From Escherichia coli (GTDB lineage: Bacteria; Pseudomonadota; Gammaproteobacteria; Enterobacterales; Enterobacteriaceae): a stretch of DNA of 64,000 nucleotides. Location of the stretch: the NCBI RefSeq assembly GCF_003334385.1, contig NZ_QOWN01000016.1. One strand, given 5' to 3'. Made by a program: the position numbers and the translations under genes. The notes beneath the pieces were generated by a model. It saw only the letters and a program-made list of their open reading frames with translations. It was not told where the DNA came from and ran no database searches. Below are positions 5,130 to 38,293 of this stretch, one piece after another (positions within the stretch are counted from its first letter, which is position 1; each line of letters begins with the position of its first letter).

Positions 5130-5351
5130 TTATTTCGATAGAGCGATGATCCCCATCGTCAGGCCAGCAACAGCAGCTGCCCCGCCGGCAATAGCCCCAG
5201 CCGTTTCCCAGTTATCCTGAGTCGTGCCTTTCATACAGGTATTGGTGTGAACCAGACGACCCTGATCGTCATAAACCGGAACGCAGGGCGAATCGTGAGC
5301 ACAGCCCGCCAGCAATGCGGTGAGCAATGCCACAGGAATTAATCTTTTCAT
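5130..5351 (-). CDS. yhdV: small lipoprotein
   Basis: 73 aa, lipobox LLAGC after signal peptide, Gly/Ala-rich C-terminus. Confidence 0.75.
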   Translation of the reverse strand: MKRLIPVALLTALLAGCAHDSPCVPVYDDQGRLVHTNTCMKGTTQDNWETAGAIAGGAAAVAGLTMGIIALSK

Positions 5352-5603
5352 GGTGTTACCTCAGTAATAAACGCTAACGCTTAATAAGTTAACTCTCTTA
5401 TTAACGAGCTGAATGCCATTTTATCACCGGAGGTTATAAATCTTGCGGAATGAATAATGACAAATTATGTGAATTGTAAAAATAGTGAAGGGAGCGGGAA
5501 CTATAGAAAGCTTTTAAAGAGTGAGCAGAAGAATATCTTATTAATTTTTATGGGTTTCACTGGAAATAATAAAGGCACCCGAAAGCGCCTTTATGTTTCT
5601 GAT

Positions 5604-8600
5604 TTATCCTTTAAAGCAACGGCGGATCACCACAAAGAACACCGGTACGAAGAAGATTGCCAGCAACGTTGCAGAGACCATTCCTCCCATTACCCCGATA
5701 CCCACAGCGTTCTGCGCGCCACTGCCGGCACCGTTACTGATAGCTAGCGGTAATACGCCGAGAATAAAGGCGAGAGAGGTCATCAGGATAGGACGCAGAC
5801 GCATACGTACTGCCATCAGTGTCGCTTCAACAACACCTTTACCCTCTTTCTCCATGAGATCTTTAGCGAACTCAACGATCAAAATAGCGTTTTTGGCCGA
5901 CAAGCCAATTGTCGTTAGCAAGCCCACCATAAAGTAGACGTCATTTTTTTGATTAAAGAGTGTCGCCGCCAGCAGCACGCCGACAATCCCTAACGGCACT
6001 ACCAACATAACCGAGACAGGAATTGACCAGCTTTCATAGAGTGCAGCAAGGCACAGGAAAACAACCACAAAGGAAATTGCTACCAGAGCGGGAGCCTGGT
6101 TTCCCGATAAGCGTTCCTGATACGACATACCCGTCCAGTCATAACCAATGCCCGCAGGTAATTTTGACGCAAGGTTTTCCATCAACGCCATGGCATCGCC
6201 GGAACTGGTTCCTGGCGCGGCTTCCCCCTGAATCTCCATTGACGGCAGACCGTTGTAGCGTTCCAGTCGCGGAGAGCCATACACCCAATGTGAAGTGGTA
6301 AAGGCCGAGAATGGCACCATTTCGCCGTTGGCGCTGCGGACATAAAGTTTATCGACATCTTCTGGCAGCATACGGAATTTGGCATCCGCCTGAACATACA
6401 ACTTTTTCACGCGACCACGGTCGATGAAGTCGTTAACGTAAGTCCCACCCAGCGCCGTTGAAATGGTCTGATTGATGTCAGAAAGTGAAACACCTAATGC
6501 CTGCGCCTTTTCCTGGTCAACTTCCAGTTTAAACTGCGCGGTGTCTTCCAGGCCATTAGGGCGCACGCTGACTAAGCTGGCAGGATGTTGCGCCGCCATA
6601 CCAAGCAACTGGTTACGGGCCTGGGTTAGGGCATCGTGACCCAGCCCAGCCTGATCAATTAACTCAAAGTCGAAACCCGTTGCCGTGCCCAGTTCAACAA
6701 TGGCTGGCATATTGAATGGAATGACAAAACCGTCGCGGATCTTGCCCAATTCCATTTTGGCACGATGGATTACCGCTTCCGCACTGTTTTCGTCACCATT
6801 ACGCTCTTCCCACGGTTTCAGACTGACGAAGGCCATACCGGCGTTTTGTGCCTGGCCGCTGAAGCTAAAGCCGTTAACCGTAAAGACACTTTCAACGTTC
6901 GCTTTCTCGTTCTTCAGATAGTAATCCGTAACTTGATCCAACACTTTTTGCGTCCGCTCTTGCGTCGCGCCAGCGGGTAACTGAATCATGGTCAGAAAGA
7001 CACCCTGATCCTCTTCAGGTAAGAAGGAAGACGGAAGACGTAAAAACAACACCACCATTCCTGCAACAATCAGCGCATAGATCAGTAAATATCGTCCTGT
7101 GGATCCGAGGATTTTGCCGACGCTGTTGGTGTAGTGGTTAACGCTATGATCGAAGGTGGTATTAAACCAACCGAAGAAACCGCCCTTATTTTCGTGATGC
7201 TCAGCAGAGACGGGTTTAAGCAGCGTTGCACATAACGCAGGGGTAAGAATCAATGCCACCAGAACAGAAAGCGCCATTGCCGAAACGATGGTGATAGAGA
7301 ACTGGCGATAAATTGCCCCAGTAGAACCGCCGAAGAATGCCATCGGAATAAATACCGCTGACAGCACCATCGCGATACCCACCAGTGCGCCCTGAATTTG
7401 CGACATCGATTTTTCCGTCGCTTCTTTTGGCGGGAGCTTATCCTCCATCATCACGCGCTTGACGTTCTCCACCACCACTATCGCATCATCGACGAGCAGC
7501 CCGATGGCAAGCACCATCCCGAACATCGTTAGTGTGTTGATGGAGTAACCAAAAGCGGCGAGGATGGCAAACGTCCCTAACAACACCACGGGTACCGCAA
7601 TGGTGGGGATCAGCGTTGCTCGCATATTCTGCAAGAACAGATACATCACCAGGAACACCAGCATAATGGCTTCGAACAGCGTTTTTACCACTTCGTGAAT
7701 AGAAAGCTGGACGAATGGCGTGGTGTCATAAGGGTAGAGAACCTTCATTCCCTGCGGGAAGAATGGCTGTAATTCCGCCAGTTTTGCCTTAATGGCTTTC
7801 GCGGTATCGAGAGCATTCGCGCCGGTTGCCAGCTTAATCCCCAGGCCCGCCGCCGGTTTTCCGTTGATACGAGCGATAACGTTATAGTTTTCACCGCCAA
7901 GTTCAACCCGTGCGACATCTTTCAGGCGTACCACCGAGCCGTCACTGTTTACGCGCAGGGTCACTTTGCCGAATTCTTCCGGATTTTTAAACCGCGTCTG
8001 AGCAATAATCGAGGCGTTCAATTGTTGCCCTGGTAACGCTGGCGTTCCGCCCAACTGTCCGGCAGCGATCTGATCGTTCTGTACCTTCAACTGGTTAATC
8101 ACATCAACCGGTGTCAGTTTATATTTGTTTAGCAGATCGGCATCCAGCCAGATACGCATCGCATACTGTGCGCCGAAAAGCTGTACGTCACCGACGCCAT
8201 TCAGACGGCTAAGCGTATCTTTAACGTTAGAGGCCACATAGTCCGAGATATCGTCCTGTGTGGTGCCTGGGTTATCAGAGACAAAGCCCGCCACCATCAA
8301 ATAGCTGCTACTGGACTTTTCAACACTGATCCCCTGCTGCTGAACCTCCTGCGGCAGCAACGGCGTGGCGAGCTGGAGTTTGTTCTGCACCTGCACTTGC
8401 GCGATATCAGGATCGGTCCCGGACTGGAAGGTAAGGGTAATTGTCACGCTACCGGCGGAATCGCTGGTGGAGGACATATACATCAGGTTATCGATACCGT
8501 TCATATTCTGTTCGATAACCTGCGTCACCGTATCCTGCACGGTCTGCGCATCAGCGCCCGGATAGTTTGCTGAAACAGAAACCGCAGGCGGTGCAATTGT

Positions 8601-30400: not shown

Positions 30401-31283
30401 TGATTCAACGCCGTCATCACCTTTCCCGACAACGGAGCGCATTAACTTCCGTGGCTGGCCGGACGCCCAAATACGATGCACAGAGTGCTGGTTCTGGGGG
30501 CAAAAATTCGGTCGCATTGACAGTGATATCACCATTTCTGGCGATACGTTAACGCTGACCAATGGACTGATTGATACTGGTTTCTCGCGGCTTACTGCCG
30601 ATGGTGAATGGGTTAATAATCCGGGGAATGAACGTACCTCGCTGAAAGGAAAACTGCGCGGGCAGAAAATTGATGCCGCCGCAGAATTTTTTGGTGTCAC
30701 GACGCCCATACGCCAGTCGTCATTTAATGTGGATTACGATTTACACTGGCGCAAAGCACCCTGGCAGCCAGATGAAGCGACGTTGAATGGCATCATTCAT
30801 ACTCAACTGGGTAAAGGCGAAATTACCGAAATCAATACCGGACATGCCGGGCAATTGCTGCGCTTATTGAGCGTAGATGCCCTGATGCGTAAGCTGCGTT
30901 TTGATTTCAGAGACACTTTTGGCGAAGGGTTCTATTTTGACTCCATTCGCAGCACCGCGTGGATTAAAGACGGCGTTATGCACACCGACGACACGCTGGT
31001 GGATGGCCTGGAGGCGGATATCGCCATGAAAGGGTCGGTAAATCTGGTACGTCGCGACCTGAATATGGAAGCGGTTGTCGCACCAGAGATTTCTGCGACG
31101 GTGGGCGTGGCTGCGGCTTTTGCGGTTAACCCCATTGTTGGCGCGGCAGTGTTTGCCGCCAGTAAAGTGCTGGGGCCGCTGTGGAGCAAAGTCTCCATTT
31201 TGCGCTATCACATTTCGGGTCCGCTGGACGATCCGCAAATCAACGAAGTGTTGCGCCAACCGCGTAAAGAAAAAGCGCAATGA
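27483..31283 (+). CDS. yhdP: large AsmA-like envelope protein YhdP
   Basis: 1266 aa, N-terminal TM anchor then long beta-rich periplasmic region. Confidence 0.9.
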   Translation: MRRLPGILLLTGAALVVIAALLVSGLRIALPHLDAWRPEILNKIESATGMPVEASQLSASWQNFGPTLEAHDIRAELKDGGEFSVKRVTLALDVWQSLLHMRWQFRDLTFWQLRFRTNTPITSGGSDDSLEASHISDLFLRQFDHFDLRDSEVSFLTPSGQRAELAIPQLTWLNDPRRHRAEGLVSLSSLTGQHGVMQVRMDLRDDEGLLSNGRVWLQADDIDLKPWLGKWMQDNIALETAQFSLEGWMTIDKGDVTGGDVWLKQGGASWLGEKQTHTLSVDNLTAHITRENPGWQFSIPDTRITMDGKPWPSGALTLAWIPEQDVGGKDNKRSDELRIRASNLELAGLEGIRPLAAKLSPALGDVWRSTQPSGKINTLALDIPLQAADKTRFQASWSDLAWKQWKLLPGAEHFSGTLSGSVENGLLTASMKQAKMPYETVFRAPLEIADGQATISWLNNNKGFQLDGRNIDVKAKAVHARGGFRYLQPANDEPWLGILAGISTDDGSQAWRYFPENLMGKDLVDYLSGAIQGGEADNATLVYGGNPQLFPYKHNEGQFEVLVPLRNAKFAFQPDWPALTNLDIELDFINDGLWMKTDGVNLGGVRASNLTAVIPDYSKEKLLIDADIKGPGKAVGPYFDETPLKDSLGATLQELQLDGDVNARLHLDIPLNGELVTAKGEVTLRNNSLFIKPLDSTLKNLSGKFSFINSDLQSEPLTASWFNQPLNVDFSTKEGAKAYQVAVNLNGNWQPAKTGVLPEAVNEALSGSVAWDGKVGIDLPYHAGATYNIELNGDLKNVSSHLPSPLAKPAGEPLAVNVKVDGNLNSFELTGQAGADNHFNSRWLLGQKLTLDRAIWAADSKTLPPLPEQSGVELNMPPMNGAEWLALFQKGAAESVGGAASFPQHITLRTPMLSLGNQQWNNLSIVSQPTANGTLVEAQGREINATLAMRNNAPWLANIKYLYYNPSVAKTRGDSTPSSPFPTTERINFRGWPDAQIRCTECWFWGQKFGRIDSDITISGDTLTLTNGLIDTGFSRLTADGEWVNNPGNERTSLKGKLRGQKIDAAAEFFGVTTPIRQSSFNVDYDLHWRKAPWQPDEATLNGIIHTQLGKGEITEINTGHAGQLLRLLSVDALMRKLRFDFRDTFGEGFYFDSIRSTAWIKDGVMHTDDTLVDGLEADIAMKGSVNLVRRDLNMEAVVAPEISATVGVAAAFAVNPIVGAAVFAASKVLGPLWSKVSILRYHISGPLDDPQINEVLRQPRKEKAQ

Positions 31284-31357
31284 TTTGACGAGGGCGCGTA
31301 ATTGCCCCAATCTCATAGGATAATCGTTGCCAAAGGCCAACGAGCCAGAACATAACC

Positions 31358-31391
31358 GTAGGTCGGATAGGGCGTTCACGCCGCATCCGGC
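31358..31391. repeat. REP (repetitive extragenic palindrome, PU type)
   Basis: GTAGGTCGGATAGGGCGTTCACGCCGCATCCGGC, reverse complement of the REP consensus GCCGGATGCGGCGTGAACGCC...; between yhdP and tldD. Confidence 0.8.
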
Positions 31392-31423
31392 AGCCGTAAA
31401 AAATCCTCTACTGCAGTAACTAA

Positions 31424-32884
<1,461 letters not shown>

Positions 32885-33017: not shown

Positions 33018-33947
33018 TTACTTCTCTTTCCCGCGCCCGTGCATCTCCTGAAACAATTTACCGACCTCAACAAAATAATCCGTCAGCGAGTTGATCACGA
33101 CCTGTACCTTCAGCGGCAGCTTATCTTTTTCGGTATATAACGCATAAACCGGGCGTGGATCTGACTGGTAACGCGGCAGCAGGATCTCCAGCTCCCCACG
33201 ATTGATCTCGTTGATCACCCACATCAGCGGCACGTAGGCGATCCCGGCACCCGCCGTCAGCCAGCGCACCAGCGTCATCGGATCATTAGTCACAAATCTT
33301 CCTTGTGGGATCAGGCGAGTCGAGATCCCTTCCGGTGCGATCAGTTCAAATTCATTGTCGGGCCGCACGCTGTATTCAAGCCATGAATGACTACTCAAAT
33401 CGGCGGGTTTTTCCGGTATGCCGTATTGTGTGAGATAGCTTTTCGCGGCGCACACCACCATTGGCATCGCGCCCAGACGGCGGGAAAACAGGCTGGAATC
33501 CTGCAACGCGCCGACGCGGATCACCACATCCAGACCGTCGGCAATCAGGTCGGGGGCTGGAATTCCGGTAACCAGATTGACGCTCAAACCTGGGTATTCT
33601 TTCAGCATTTTGGCTGTCAGCCCGGCGAGAACATTTTGTGCCATAGTTGAAGAACAGCCAATGCGTAGCGTCCCGATGGGGGTGTTATTGAAGGCATACA
33701 GTTGCTCATGAACATCCTGCACTTCATGAAGCATACGACGGCAGCCCTGGTAGTAAATTCTACCGGCTTCGGTCAGGCCAATGCTGCGTGTGCTACGGTT
33801 TAACAGCTTTACCTGCAACTCATCTTCCAGTTTTGATACCGTCTGACTGATGGACGAAACGCTCATCTGTAGCTGTCTGGCGGCGGCGGTAAAAGAGCCA
33901 AATTCAACTACTTTGGCAAACACCGACATGCGTTTTAGTCGTTCCAT
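33018..33947 (-). CDS. aaeR: LysR-family activator AaeR
   Basis: 309 aa, N-terminal HTH, divergent from aaeXAB. Confidence 0.9.
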   Translation of the reverse strand: MERLKRMSVFAKVVEFGSFTAAARQLQMSVSSISQTVSKLEDELQVKLLNRSTRSIGLTEAGRIYYQGCRRMLHEVQDVHEQLYAFNNTPIGTLRIGCSSTMAQNVLAGLTAKMLKEYPGLSVNLVTGIPAPDLIADGLDVVIRVGALQDSSLFSRRLGAMPMVVCAAKSYLTQYGIPEKPADLSSHSWLEYSVRPDNEFELIAPEGISTRLIPQGRFVTNDPMTLVRWLTAGAGIAYVPLMWVINEINRGELEILLPRYQSDPRPVYALYTEKDKLPLKVQVVINSLTDYFVEVGKLFQEMHGRGKEK

Positions 33948-34129
33948 TATTCACTCTGACTTAAAAGTGATTTAGATCACATAATATAGATAACAGCATA
34001 ACAGTTACGCTAATATATTAAATATCAATCTACAGCAATGTTGCTCTCGCCCGGCTTTCCATGCCCTTCTCTGCGGCGACAGATGCTGAAAATAATAACG
34101 CCTGCTCTCTCTTTACAACCAAGGTCAAC

Positions 34130-34333
34130 ATGAGTCTGTTTCCCGTTATCGTGGTGTTTGGGCTGTCCTTCCCACCGATATTTTTTGAATTGCTTTTATC
34201 ACTGGCGATTTTCTGGCTGGTGCGCCGGGTACTTGTGCCAACAGGTATCTACGACTTTGTCTGGCATCCGGCGTTGTTCAACACCGCGCTCTATTGCTGC
34301 TTGTTTTATTTGATATCGCGACTGTTCGTTTGA
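34130..34333 (+). CDS. aaeX: small membrane protein AaeX
   Basis: 67 aa from [12 protein letters not shown]...; ORF track adds 23 upstream codons. Confidence 0.8.
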
Positions 34334-34340
34334 GGTTGAA

Positions 34341-35273
34341 GTGAAAACACTAATAAGAAAATTCTCCCGTACGGCCATCACGGTCGTATTAGTCATTCTG
34401 GCCTTCATCGCAATTTTTAATGCCTGGGTCTATTACACCGAATCCCCCTGGACGCGTGACGCGCGCTTTAGCGCTGACGTCGTTGCGATCGCGCCGGACG
34501 TTTCTGGACTCATTACCCAGGTGAATGTTCATGATAACCAGCTGGTGAAAAAAGGACAGATACTGTTCACCATCGACCAGCCGCGCTATCAAAAGGCGCT
34601 TGAGGAAGCGCAAGCCGATGTTGCTTATTATCAGGTACTGGCACAGGAGAAACGCCAGGAGGCCGGACGTCGTAACCGTCTCGGTGTGCAGGCGATGTCT
34701 CGCGAAGAGATCGACCAGGCCAACAACGTACTACAAACGGTTCTGCATCAGTTAGCGAAAGCGCAGGCGACCCGCGATCTGGCAAAACTGGATCTTGAAC
34801 GCACGGTGATCCGCGCGCCAGCAGATGGCTGGGTGACCAACCTCAACGTCTATACCGGTGAGTTTATTACTCGAGGATCAACGGCGGTTGCGCTGGTGAA
34901 ACAGAACTCCTTCTATGTACTGGCCTATATGGAAGAAACTAAGCTGGAAGGGGTGCGTCCGGGGTATCGTGCAGAGATCACGCCGCTTGGCAGTAACAAA
35001 GTGCTGAAAGGGACTGTTGATAGTGTTGCCGCAGGGGTCACCAACGCCAGCAGCACGCGTGACGACAAAGGGATGGCGACTATAGACTCTAACCTTGAAT
35101 GGGTGCGTCTTGCGCAACGTGTTCCGGTTCGTATTCGTCTCGACAACCAGCAAGAGAACATCTGGCCTGCGGGCACCACTGCTACAGTGGTGGTCACTGG
35201 CAAACAAGATCGCGACGAAAGCCAGGATTCGTTCTTCCGTAAAATGGCCCATCGCCTGCGTGAGTTTGGTTAA
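34341..35273 (+). CDS. aaeA: aromatic carboxylic acid efflux pump, membrane-fusion subunit
   Basis: 310 aa, HlyD-like, single N-terminal TM. Confidence 0.9.
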
Positions 35274-35278
35274 TCACG

Positions 35279-37246
35279 ATGGGTATTTTCTCCATTGCTA
35301 ACCAACATATTCGCTTTGCGGTAAAACTGGCGACCGCCATTGTACTGGCGCTGTTTGTTGGCTTTCACTTCCAGCTGGAAACGCCACGCTGGGCGGTACT
35401 GACAGCGGCGATTGTTGCCGCCGGTCCGGCCTTTGCTGCGGGAGGTGAACCGTATTCTGGCGCTATTCGCTATCGTGGCTTTTTGCGCATCATCGGCACA
35501 TTTATTGGCTGTATTGCCGGACTGGTGATCATCATTGCGATGATCCGCGCACCATTATTGATGATTCTGGTGTGCTGTATCTGGGCCGGTTTTTGTACCT
35601 GGATATCCTCGCTGGTACGAATAGAAAACTCGTATGCGTGGGGGCTGGCCGGTTATACCGCGCTGATCATTGTGATCACCATTCAGCCGGAACCATTGCT
35701 TACGCCGCAGTTTGCCGTCGAACGTTGTAGCGAGATCGTTATCGGTATTGTGTGTGCGATTATGGCGGATTTGCTCTTTTCTCCGCGATCGATCAAACAA
35801 GAAGTGGATCGAGAGCTGGAAAGTTTGCTGGTCGCGCAATATCAATTAATGCAACTCTGTATCAAGCATGGCGATGGTGAAGTTGTCGATAAAGCCTGGG
35901 GCGACCTGGTGCGACGCACCACGGCGCTACAAGGCATGCGCAGCAACCTGAATATGGAATCTTCCCGCTGGGCGCGGGCCAATCGACGTTTAAAAGCGAT
36001 CAATACGCTATCGCTGACGCTGATTACCCAATCCTGCGAAACTTATCTTATTCAGAATACGCGCCCGGAATTGATCACTGATACTTTCCGCGAATTTTTT
36101 GACACGCCGGTAGAAACCGCGCAGGACGTCCACAAGCAGCTCAAACGCCTGCGGAGAGTTATCGCCTGGACCGGGGAACGGGAAACGCCTGTCACCATTT
36201 ATAGCTGGGTCGCGGCGGCAACGCGTTATCAGCTTCTCAAGCGCGGCGTTATCAGTAACACAAAAATCAACGCCACCGAAGAAGAGATCCTGCAAGGCGA
36301 ACCGGAAGTAAAAGTAGAGTCAGCCGAACGTCATCATGCAATGGTTAACTTCTGGCGAACCACACTTTCCTGCATTCTGGGCACGCTTTTCTGGCTGTGG
36401 ACGGGCTGGACTTCCGGCAGTGGTGCAATGGTGATGATTGCGGTAGTGACGTCACTGGCAATGCGTTTGCCGAATCCACGCATGGTGGCGATCGACTTTA
36501 TCTACGGGACGCTGGCCGCGCTGCCGTTAGGGCTGCTCTACTTTTTGGTGATTATCCCTAATACCCAACAGAGCATGTTGCTGCTGTGCATTAGCCTGGC
36601 AGTGCTGGGATTCTTCCTCGGTATAGAAGTACAGAAACGGCGACTGGGCTCGATGGGGGCACTGGCCAGCACCATAAATATTATCGTGCTGGATAACCCG
36701 ATGACTTTCCATTTCAGTCAGTTTCTCGACAGCGCATTAGGGCAAATCGTCGGCTGTGTGCTCGCGTTCACCGTTATTTTGCTGGTGCGGGATAAATCGC
36801 GCGACAGGACCGGACGTGTACTGCTTAATCAGTTTGTTTCTGCCGCTGTTTCCGCGATGACTACCAATGTGGCACGTCGTAAAGAGAACCACCTCCCGGC
36901 ACTTTATCAGCAGCTGTTTTTGCTGATGAATAAGTTCCCAGGGGATTTGCCGAAATTTCGCCTGGCGCTGACGATGATTATCGCGCACCAGCGCCTGCGT
37001 GATGCACCGATCCCGGTTAACGAGGATTTATCGGCGTTTCACCGACAAATGCGCCGCACAGCAGACCATGTGATATCTGCCCGTAGCGATGATAAACGTC
37101 GTCGGTACTTTGGCCAGTTGCTGGAAGAACTGGAAATCTACCAGGAAAAGCTACGCATCTGGCAAGCGCCACCGCAGGTGACGGAACCGGTAAATCGGCT
37201 GGCGGGGATGCTCCATAAGTATCAACATGCGTTGACCGATAGTTAA
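35279..37246 (+). CDS. aaeB: aromatic carboxylic acid efflux pump, FUSC-family transporter
   Basis: 655 aa, two hydrophobic blocks separated by a soluble domain. Confidence 0.9.
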
Positions 37247-37249
37247 GTC

Positions 37250-37279
37250 AAAACCGACGCCAAAAGCGTCGGTTTTTTC
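37250..37279 (+). terminator. aaeXAB terminator
   Basis: AAAACCGACGC-CAAAA-GCGTCGGTTTTTTC directly after aaeB stop. Confidence 0.75.
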
Positions 37280-37337
37280 ATGGCTATACTTAGCGATGCA
37301 CGGCAGAACTCGCCGCGAAACGTGACGGTGGCAACAG

Positions 37338-37610
37338 ATGAATATTTATACCTTTGATTTTGATGAGATTGAGAGTCAGGAGGATTTTTATCGTGACTTT
37401 AGCCAAACCTTTGGTCTGGCGAAAGATAAGGTACGCGATCTCGACTCACTATGGGATGTGTTAATGAACGATGTCCTGCCGCTACCACTTGAGATTGAAT
37501 TTGTTCATCTGGGAGAGAAAACGCGTCGCCGTTTTGGCGCGTTAATATTGCTGTTTGATGAGGCAGAGGAAGAGCTGGAAGGGCATTTGCGTTTTAATGT
37601 TCGTCATTAG
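37338..37610 (+). CDS. yhcO: barstar-like protein (putative RNase inhibitor)
   Basis: 90 aa acidic protein; recognised as YhcO; no barnase-like partner in this window. Confidence 0.8.
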
Positions 37611-37611
37611 C

Positions 37612-37640
37612 GCAAAAAAAAGCCCCCGAACCGGGGGCAA
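37612..37640 (-). terminator. yhcN terminator hairpin between convergent yhcO and yhcN
   Basis: AAAAAAAAGCCCCCGAACCGGGGGC; on the minus strand the hairpin is followed by a T-run. Confidence 0.6.
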
Positions 37641-37665
37641 TATCGTCGGACAAGACGATGAGGGT

Positions 37666-37929
37666 TTATTTGTACAGTTCAGCCGTAGCGTGCCAGGTGT
37701 CACCGCTACGAGCTTCAGTAATCTGGTAGGCCGTTGCGCCTTTCTCTTCCGCTTTTTTGTTCAGCATTTCACGCATATCCATTGGCGAAGACGCCACACC
37801 ACTTACGGATACGGTCCCGATTGCTTCACGATTTTGTGCTTGTGCAGCATCAATGGAGTCGGCAGCGAATGCACCGAAAGAGAGAACAGAAAGTACGCTT
37901 AATGCAGCAACAGTGGTTTTGATTTTCAT
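37666..37929 (-). CDS. yhcN: small periplasmic stress protein (DUF1471, BhsA/YdgH-like)
   Basis: 87 aa from MKIKTTVAALSVLSVLSFGAFA (signal peptide); ORF track adds 17 codons. Confidence 0.82.
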   Translation of the reverse strand: MKIKTTVAALSVLSVLSFGAFAADSIDAAQAQNREAIGTVSVSGVASSPMDMREMLNKKAEEKGATAYQITEARSGDTWHATAELYK

Positions 37930-38293
37930 GATTTTTACCTCGACATAATCTTTTAGCTGGGCCTTTGTTTCGTGACCCATATCACAAAATCAAGTATACA
38001 CTAATTATTGAGCTAATTAATACCGCGCTAACTGTTTCAGTTGATACTAAGTGTTAAAAATGTGAATTTTAATAACAAAAAAGAATTAAAAATACGGTTA
38101 TTTATCGTTAATTCTAGTTTTTTCAATTAGATAATGAATTTTGCATAATGTGCTTTTTTTACCTTATGTATTCATTGTGTGAATGACATGTCGCAGTAAA
38201 ACGCACTATTCGTTAAATTAATCGCAGGGGAAAGCAGGGGGTTGAGAGGGATAAGCAACATTTTCCCCGCCGTCAGAAACGACGGGGCAGAGA

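Follow-up and report, generated by a model that had tools for sequence, protein, structure and literature searches.

YhcO, a barstar-family protein of Escherichia coli without a neighbouring ribonuclease: strong conservation, probable origin from a ribonuclease-inhibitor pair and a possible change of target

Barstar of Bacillus amyloliquefaciens (PF01337; structures 1BRS and 1B27) is the inhibitor of the ribonuclease (RNase) barnase, which is toxic in Escherichia coli unless barstar is co-expressed (PMC8403359). Proteins of the same family occur as Imm-Barstar among the immunity proteins of polymorphic toxin systems, and orphan immunity genes of these systems typically evolve fast, vary between strains and have mobile elements or toxin cassettes as neighbours (Zhang et al. 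2012, PMC3482391). According to the barnase literature, a barstar gene is absent from E. coli. Here we describe yhcO, located at 37338-37610 on the plus strand of a 64,000-nucleotide stretch of E. coli DNA (contig NZ_QOWN01000016.1; in the following the window), which codes for a barstar-fold protein. YhcO is only about 20% identical to the Bacillus barstar, lacks an adjacent barnase gene and does not conserve the contact positions Tyr29/Tyr30/Gly31/Asn33 and Thr42/Gly43/Trp44; moreover, barnase is still toxic in E. coli despite yhcO. With the orphan immunity genes YhcO shares the family and the missing toxin, but yhcO is a single syntenic core gene under purifying selection, and no Rhs, CdiA, toxin cassette or mobile element was found near it: aaeXAB and yhcN-argR-mdh flank it in every locus. 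The closest relatives outside the YhcO clade, with 34-48% identity, are RNase-linked barstars of other Enterobacterales (Proteus mirabilis, locus L090; L001, L005, L086 and L094; Pantoea, L098). They have the length of YhcO and its framework FDF...FY...LD(A/S)LWD...LP...EA.EEL.G, and most are encoded near tldD. In contrast to YhcO, they are encoded -8 to +21 bp 3' of a secreted barnase orthologue and carry a P-x-[YW]-F-G-x-N loop. Yersinia pestis YPO3690 is a possible counterpart by its annotation string only ('probable ribonuclease inhibitor YPO3690'). The antitoxin of a type II toxin-antitoxin system, bicistronic and with a DNA-binding domain, differs from YhcO, which is monocistronic, has a Barstar domain only and has no conserved open reading frame (ORF) in the upstream spacer.

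Profile, fold and core motif all assign YhcO to the barstar family. The coding sequence has an ATG start and 90 codons plus stop in the ORF list, and the surrounding DNA is that of an E. coli K-12-type chromosome, 1.2 kb being 100% identical to MG1655 and many other strains. The protein of 90 aa has 21 acidic and 10 basic residues and an isoelectric point of 4.48. A Pfam search with YhcO gave Barstar (PF01337) as the sole domain, with an i-Evalue of 2.4e-9 and a score of 37.5, aligning residues 1-81 to positions 1-85 of the 96 model positions. The initial annotation, an acidic barstar-type protein of 90 aa read from the DNA, was thus correct. The structure 2CX6 in the PDB, deposited as 'ribonuclease inhibitor Barstar', is 100% identical to YhcO, and the RefSeq label is 'barstar family protein'. 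An AlphaFold2 (AF2) model had a predicted local distance difference test (pLDDT) of 95.7 and template modelling (TM) scores of 0.99 against 2CX6 and about 0.8 against barstar; it has the alpha/beta barstar fold with three parallel strands and four helices. The acidic RNase-binding motif of the family, D35-x-x-W38-D39 at the N-terminus of helix 2 together with E76 and E80 in helix 4, is present: YhcO D36, W39, D40, E75 and E79 align to barstar D35, W38, D39, E76 and E80 and are invariant across 77 unique orthologues. Two features typical of the family are absent, the neighbouring RNase gene and the Tyr29 contact loop. NCBIfam, PADLOC (defence systems) and PHROGs (phage families) had zero matches for YhcO. 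A literature search found no paper naming yhcO together with barstar, no functional study of yhcO and no biochemical report of RNase inhibition by YhcO; 2CX6 was cited only in an unrelated modelling paper, and a study of 2023 states that the function of yhcO 'remains unknown' (PMC10272880). Gene, annotation and structure are already known, and the observation of a barstar-like gene at this place is correct and essentially ordinary. The present analysis adds a likely origin of yhcO, evidence of selection and a shift in constraint.

Full-length yhcO belongs to the core genome; it is subject to strong purifying selection and is not decaying. Of 5426 complete E. coli genomes, all 5426 had the coding sequence at a coverage of at least 80%, with a nucleotide identity of at least 90% in all of them and at least 95% in 5418. 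A scan of one genome per species yielded 80 loci with 61-99% protein identity, confined to Enterobacteriaceae and Erwiniaceae except for two tiny contigs that look like contamination. These are yhcO fragments assigned to Corynebacterium lipophiloflavum (L051, 241 bp) and Hydrogenophaga intermedia (L074, 422 bp), almost certainly assembly contamination; one is 100% identical to E. coli, the other matches Klebsiella. All 78 full-length copies were intact ORFs of 88-94 codons, and the gene order yhdP-tldD-aaeR(-)-aaeXAB-yhcO-yhcN(-)-argR(-)-mdh was found in every locus that was long enough. The ratio of nonsynonymous to synonymous substitution rates (dN/dS) was 0.04 against E. albertii and E. whittamii, with a median of 0.17 for 428 species pairs with dS between 0.1 and 1.5. 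Constraint is concentrated in two segments, residues 35-41 (LDSLWD) and 62-87 (starting RRR[FY]), with a mean column entropy of 0.19 and 0.27 bits, respectively, versus 1.2-1.5 bits elsewhere, and a joint dN/dS of 0.057. Although synonymous change was saturated, thirty-four positions showed a conservation of at least 97%. Every synonymous codon is in use at the invariant residues, thus the protein and not the DNA is under conservation.

The relatives of YhcO place the gene in a different setting. An exhaustive HMMER (phmmer) search of 1.84 billion representative proteins retrieved 112 relatives at E<=1e-3, and the genetic context was inspected for eight full-length relatives outside the YhcO clade. 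In all eight an RNase gene of the PF00545 type was located directly 5' of the barstar gene on the same strand, at the distance of -8 to +21 bp given above; including further loci, all 12 inspected barstar genes outside the YhcO clade adjoin a PF00545-type RNase. Five of the eight distant pairs lie in a neighbourhood yhdP-CN_hydrolase-tldD-(0-2 genes)-RNase-barstar-darP(-)-pmbA. Proteus mirabilis H63 (L090) has the same tldD-RNase-barstar arrangement: NCBIfam confirmed its TldD and Pfam its RNase (E 1e-13), and its barstar (5336-5617) is 36% identical to YhcO. The window and 85 loci were mapped by tblastn with tldD (31439-32884, plus strand) as synteny anchor; the loci L001-L003, L005, L086 and L094-L096 have the same arrangement as L090, and of these L001 is probably a Xenorhabdus and L094-L096 are probably Pragia fontium, judging by the accession numbers. 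Between tldD and yhcO the window has aaeR (33018-33947) on the minus strand, followed by aaeXAB (34061-37246), and yhcO agrees with the tldD-linked barstars in its strand and in the side of tldD on which it is located. The linked RNases possess an N-terminal hydrophobic leader and are 52-56% identical to barnase, and K27, R59, E73, R83, R87, H102 and Y103 are invariant in the enterobacterial proteins; hence they are true orthologues of barnase and secreted. By neighbour joining, the YhcO clade was monophyletic on a long stem with the tldD-linked barstars as nearest neighbours, and the best-scoring non-YhcO relatives by phmmer were also tldD-linked. The CN_hydrolase gene between yhdP and tldD, present in Morganellaceae-type loci (L001, L005, L090, L094), is missing in the E. 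coli window (31283-31439) and in Enterobacteriaceae and Erwiniaceae, thus more than one gene has been lost in the tldD neighbourhood. One metagenomic relative of 255 aa (P0096) has a barstar domain (173-251) fused to an N-terminal region of about 170 residues.

A partner RNase was not detected around yhcO. The initial annotation had reported that no barnase-like or other toxin ORF is adjacent among ORFs of 60 aa or more, and this was confirmed: a tblastn search of the 64-kb window with two enterobacterial barnase-type RNases as queries was negative, and none of the 78 loci of Enterobacteriaceae and Erwiniaceae had a PF00545-type RNase within 8 kb of yhcO. The scan for small ORFs proposed for the spacer of 91 bp between aaeB and yhcO revealed only an ORF of 25 aa that is confined to Escherichia, thus no conserved small toxin. 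An RNase remnant near yhcO was likewise not found by tblastn, and the spacer contains only a terminator and a promoter-like element. Among the 5426 E. coli genomes, a genome-wide search by blastn gave no match to the RNase-barstar DNA of Proteus or of the Pantoea-like pair, a weak test on the DNA level that would miss a divergent protein homologue. In a protein search with the Proteus RNase, no RNase named from Escherichia, Salmonella, Enterobacter or Citrobacter was among the best 120 of 852 relatives; named there were homologues from the Morganellaceae Proteus, Providencia, Morganella, Xenorhabdus and Photorhabdus, from Yersinia and Leminorella, and from the Erwiniaceae Pantoea, Erwinia and Tatumella. 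A tblastn search of 72,556 plasmids with the RNase revealed no Enterobacteriaceae plasmid with a barnase-type RNase; the matches were to Bacillus, Clostridium, a few other Gram-positives and to Proteus chromosomes filed as plasmids. Matches to YhcO in the plasmid and phage collections were chromosome-like records only. Several PLSDB records of 4-5 Mb are evidently chromosomes (Proteus mirabilis NZ_OL790811.1 and NZ_OL790812.1; E. coli NZ_OL790696.1, NZ_CP134663.1 and NZ_CP141089.1), which explains their matches to yhcO or to the tldD-linked RNase; the Proteus mirabilis H63 locus came to light through such a record.

Constraint has shifted on part of the face that would contact the RNase. The comparison covered 77 unique proteins of the YhcO clade and 43 further relatives of full length. 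Both groups conserve the residues equivalent to barstar D35, W38, D39, E76 and E80, whereas the loop preceding helix 2 differs. At the position of barstar Y29 the other relatives have Y (57%) or W (12%) and the YhcO clade is variable with E/K; at Y30 they have F (88%) versus a variable Q/K; at G31 they have G (86%) versus V/I; at N33 they have N (97%) versus D (87%); and T42 is T in 79% versus 40%. The contact loop, in barstar Tyr29-Tyr30-Gly31-x-Asn33 with Thr42-Gly43, is thus lost or variable in the YhcO clade. Barstar Tyr29 is reportedly a hot spot of binding that rests against His102, a catalytic residue of barnase. Conversely, R64, R65, G67, E77, E78 and N87 are invariant in the YhcO clade only. 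Conservation of the loop was lost although the YhcO clade is the shallower sample, and this loss robustly indicates that the constraint was relaxed or altered.

Some Erwiniaceae encode YhcO together with a complete RNase-barstar pair. In Pantoea sp. BAV 3049, one contig of 5.17 Mb has both a gene of the YhcO type (L060) and, apart from it, an RNase-barstar pair (L098), the two barstars being 35% identical. Erwinia sp. JUb26 encodes YhcO as well (L079), and one of the named RNases is from the same organism. YhcO with the same invariant residues is thus maintained in cells despite a dedicated inhibitor for their own RNase. The second pair of the Erwiniaceae was located at 6001-6802 in L098, at 6001-6775 in L099 and L100 and at 3145-3874 in L101; it adjoins srfB/srfC-like virulence-factor genes (srfB/srfC in L098) or a periplasmic binding-protein gene. 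L101 is a 5.3-kb contig labelled K. pneumoniae with a Pantoea-like context and may be a contaminant or mislabelled.

The local architecture in E. coli is that of a single transcription unit. The initial annotation had placed yhcO convergent with yhcN and downstream of the aaeXAB terminator, and the ORF list and the RNA fold agree on both points. The ATG of yhcO is located 91 bp past the stop codon of aaeB. Directly 5' of the promoter region, the intrinsic terminator of the aaeXAB operon (37251-37279, plus strand) consists of a 10-bp GC-rich hairpin and a U-run; its fold has a free energy of -18.4 kcal/mol and a z-score of -5.6, none of 200 shuffles being as stable, and the hairpin is kept in Escherichia, Klebsiella and Pseudocitrobacter. 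Between this terminator and the yhcO ATG lies gGCTATACTTAg (37283-37292), which includes a predicted sigma-S-type -10 element CTATACT (37284-37290, plus strand, 48-54 nt 5' of the ATG). The context matches the sigma-S -10 consensus with a C at position -13. The sequence GCTATACTTA has a single occurrence in the window, where the chance expectation is 0.02. CTATACT is kept in all Escherichia loci, in K. pneumoniae and in Pseudocitrobacter, the genera with yhcO directly after aaeB, and a promoter scan upstream of yhcO found no sigma-70-type pair of -35 and -10 elements. We infer that the CTATACT element is the yhcO promoter. A putative Shine-Dalgarno-like GGTGG (37327-37331, plus strand) stands 6 nt before the ATG, and a GGTGGC-like motif occurs at the equivalent place 5' of yhcO in many other genera. 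The terminator scan assigned a hairpin at 37622-37638, followed by T8 on the minus strand, to yhcN and a hairpin at 37641-37660, with a plus-strand tail rich in T behind it, as probable terminator to yhcO; both are located within the 55-bp convergent spacer, with RNA folds of the two strands at z -3.8 and -3.1. The gene is thus monocistronic, bounded by two terminators. Rfam had zero matches in 33-41 kb of the window. Expression data are available from the literature: yhcO is RpoS-dependent in E. coli O157:H7 EDL933 (PMC2907692), an acid shift raises it along with dps, gadB, osmC and yhcN (PMC2270276), and LldR was reported as an activator (PMC10272880). The two LldR boxes proposed for yhcO in the latter study map to 37409-37425 and 37474-37490 of the window, both on the minus strand and with 8 of 14 matches each. 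They are inside the coding sequence and not upstream, thus the site behind the reported activation is uncertain.

Several explanations of the solitary gene concern its past. Its distant relatives are paired with an RNase and mostly located near tldD as yhcO is, so a probable origin of yhcO is an ancestral pair of RNase and inhibitor from which the RNase disappeared. In the simplest history, a chromosomal pair of a secreted barnase-type RNase and a barstar would have been located just downstream of tldD; the RNase gene would have been lost in the common ancestor of Enterobacteriaceae and Erwiniaceae, and the inhibitor gene kept. The suggestion of the initial annotation that such genes can be remnants of lost toxin systems thus stands for the origin, but neither a decaying remnant nor a strain-variable orphan agrees with a gene found in every E. 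coli genome under purifying selection. The chance that yhcO is a non-functional, drifting leftover of the pair is negligible: although a cognate RNase was not found nearby and the literature offers no function ('remains unknown', PMC10272880), the intact ORFs throughout two families, the low dN/dS, the 34 positions conserved despite saturated synonymous change and an expression regulated by RpoS, acid and LldR all contradict it. A functionless relic is excluded by the selection data, and an explanation by an overlapping element is opposed by the diversity of synonymous codons. It is distinctly unlikely that yhcO, instead of being an orthologue of the tldD-linked barstars, arose as an ancient paralogue or came in by horizontal transfer as a solitary barstar, so that no RNase was lost here. 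The synteny is one-sided, restricted to yhdP-tldD, with about 4.4 kb of aaeR-aaeXAB intervening and yhcN-argR-mdh versus darP-pmbA downstream; the second, RNase-linked barstar of some Erwiniaceae demonstrates that paralogues exist; and the tree of 90-residue proteins is poorly resolved, with the YhcO clade on a long stem. These points weigh against descent from the tldD-linked pair, and with a one-sided synteny and a weak tree orthology is likely, not proven. On the other hand, the closest non-YhcO relatives by phmmer score and tree are tldD-linked, strand and side of tldD are equal in both arrangements, and the Erwiniaceae pair groups with other RNase-linked barstars and not with YhcO.

The present target of YhcO is a separate matter. 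In our tentative reading, somewhat short of probable, the target is other than a barnase-type RNase, and YhcO would be a sigma-S-controlled solitary inhibitor with a changed target. In E. coli it would now be a monocistronic stationary-phase gene: aaeB terminator, sigma-S-type -10, yhcO, terminator. The acidic barstar 'plug' of D36/W39/D40, E75 and E79 is kept, thus YhcO most likely still acts as a stoichiometric inhibitor of a protein and covers a basic site that binds phosphate; the contact loop was given up and clade-specific invariants arose, which suggests that the site would no longer be that of a barnase-type RNase. The new partner would be conserved, probably endogenous, probably RNA-binding and acting in stationary phase. 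It is possible, though doubtful, that after the partner loss YhcO was exapted into a sigma-S-controlled RNA or phosphate mimic inhibiting another endogenous protein that is conserved; a further ribonuclease or an mRNA interferase of the barnase fold (BECR, RelE/YoeB-type) would be candidates. A changed target is favoured by the lost loop, the coexistence in Pantoea, the status as a core syntenic gene of the sigma-S regulon and the lethality of barnase in E. coli, from which it follows that the chromosomal yhcO does not neutralise barnase under laboratory conditions. We regard as rather unlikely that YhcO still inhibits barnase-type (N1/T1 family) RNases as a stand-alone cytoplasmic safeguard against the RNases of neighbours (Proteus, Yersinia, Pantoea, Bacillus) or against polymorphic toxin domains. 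The invariance of the D35, W38, D39, E76 and E80 equivalents in 77 unique orthologues speaks for such a safeguard, and as the RNase contact residues K27, R59, R83, R87 and H102 are invariant in the enterobacterial RNases and barnase, one inhibitor could cover many of them. Barnase-type RNases are common in sister families and occur in some Erwiniaceae, and Imm-Barstar is linked specifically to barnase-like toxin domains (PMC3482391). Opposed to it are the Y29-F30-G31-x-N33 loop, near-invariant in the RNase-linked relatives and lost or variable in the YhcO clade, and the unchanged YhcO in a Pantoea genome that owns a dedicated RNase-linked barstar. The universal syntenic core conservation is unlike that of strain-variable orphan immunity genes, no Enterobacteriaceae plasmid among the 72,556 was found to carry a barnase-type RNase, and the two enterobacterial RNase genes had no DNA-level match in the E. 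coli genomes. Secreted RNases normally do not enter the cytoplasm of Gram-negative bacteria. Furthermore, barnase is lethal to E. coli without a plasmid-borne barstar (PMC8403359). Several points weigh against the proposed change of target: it is derived from sequence patterns only; the invariant hot-spot equivalents fit a continued inhibition of barnase-type RNases equally well; the lethality of barnase could reflect a low YhcO level in growing cells, as expected from a single-copy sigma-S gene; and the YhcO clade is phylogenetically shallower, which makes its specific invariants weaker evidence than the lost loop. An AF2 prediction of a fused chain (Proteus RNase domain, (G4S)5 linker, YhcO) gave confident domains and no confident docking at a predicted TM score (pTM) of 0.55, in a run without control.

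The neighbouring genes vary among the genera. One (Escherichia) to three (many Erwiniaceae) yhcN-like copies of the YdgH/BhsA family are located between yhcO and argR. The longest ORF for yhcN in the window (37666-37980, minus strand) codes for 104 aa and is probably overextended; a start at MKIKTT..., resembling a signal peptide, yields 87 aa. In most Enterobacteriaceae and in all Erwiniaceae loci aaeB and yhcO are separated by an aldehyde-dehydrogenase gene, the end of which is 30-60 bp from yhcO. It is succinate-semialdehyde-dehydrogenase-like (NCBIfam SSADH subfamily, above the cut-off), for example at 2506-3960 in L004, and corresponds to a gap of ~1.6 kb in most of the loci L012-L085. 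The gene is missing in Escherichia, K. pneumoniae and Pseudocitrobacter, where the aaeB terminator and CTATACT directly precede yhcO.

A barstar whose binding face is perfectly conserved is thus retained under the control of RpoS by the bacterium that has been studied best, in every strain and throughout two families, with no known barnase. If YhcO still inhibits barnase-type RNases, it would be a rare, long-lived orphan immunity gene of the core genome. If it has a new target, it would document the exaptation of an antitoxin-like inhibitor for host physiology and might uncover a control of stationary-phase RNA turnover that has so far escaped notice. Should the exaptation be true, YhcO would be a chromosomal regulator of stationary-phase RNA decay and not an immunity protein.
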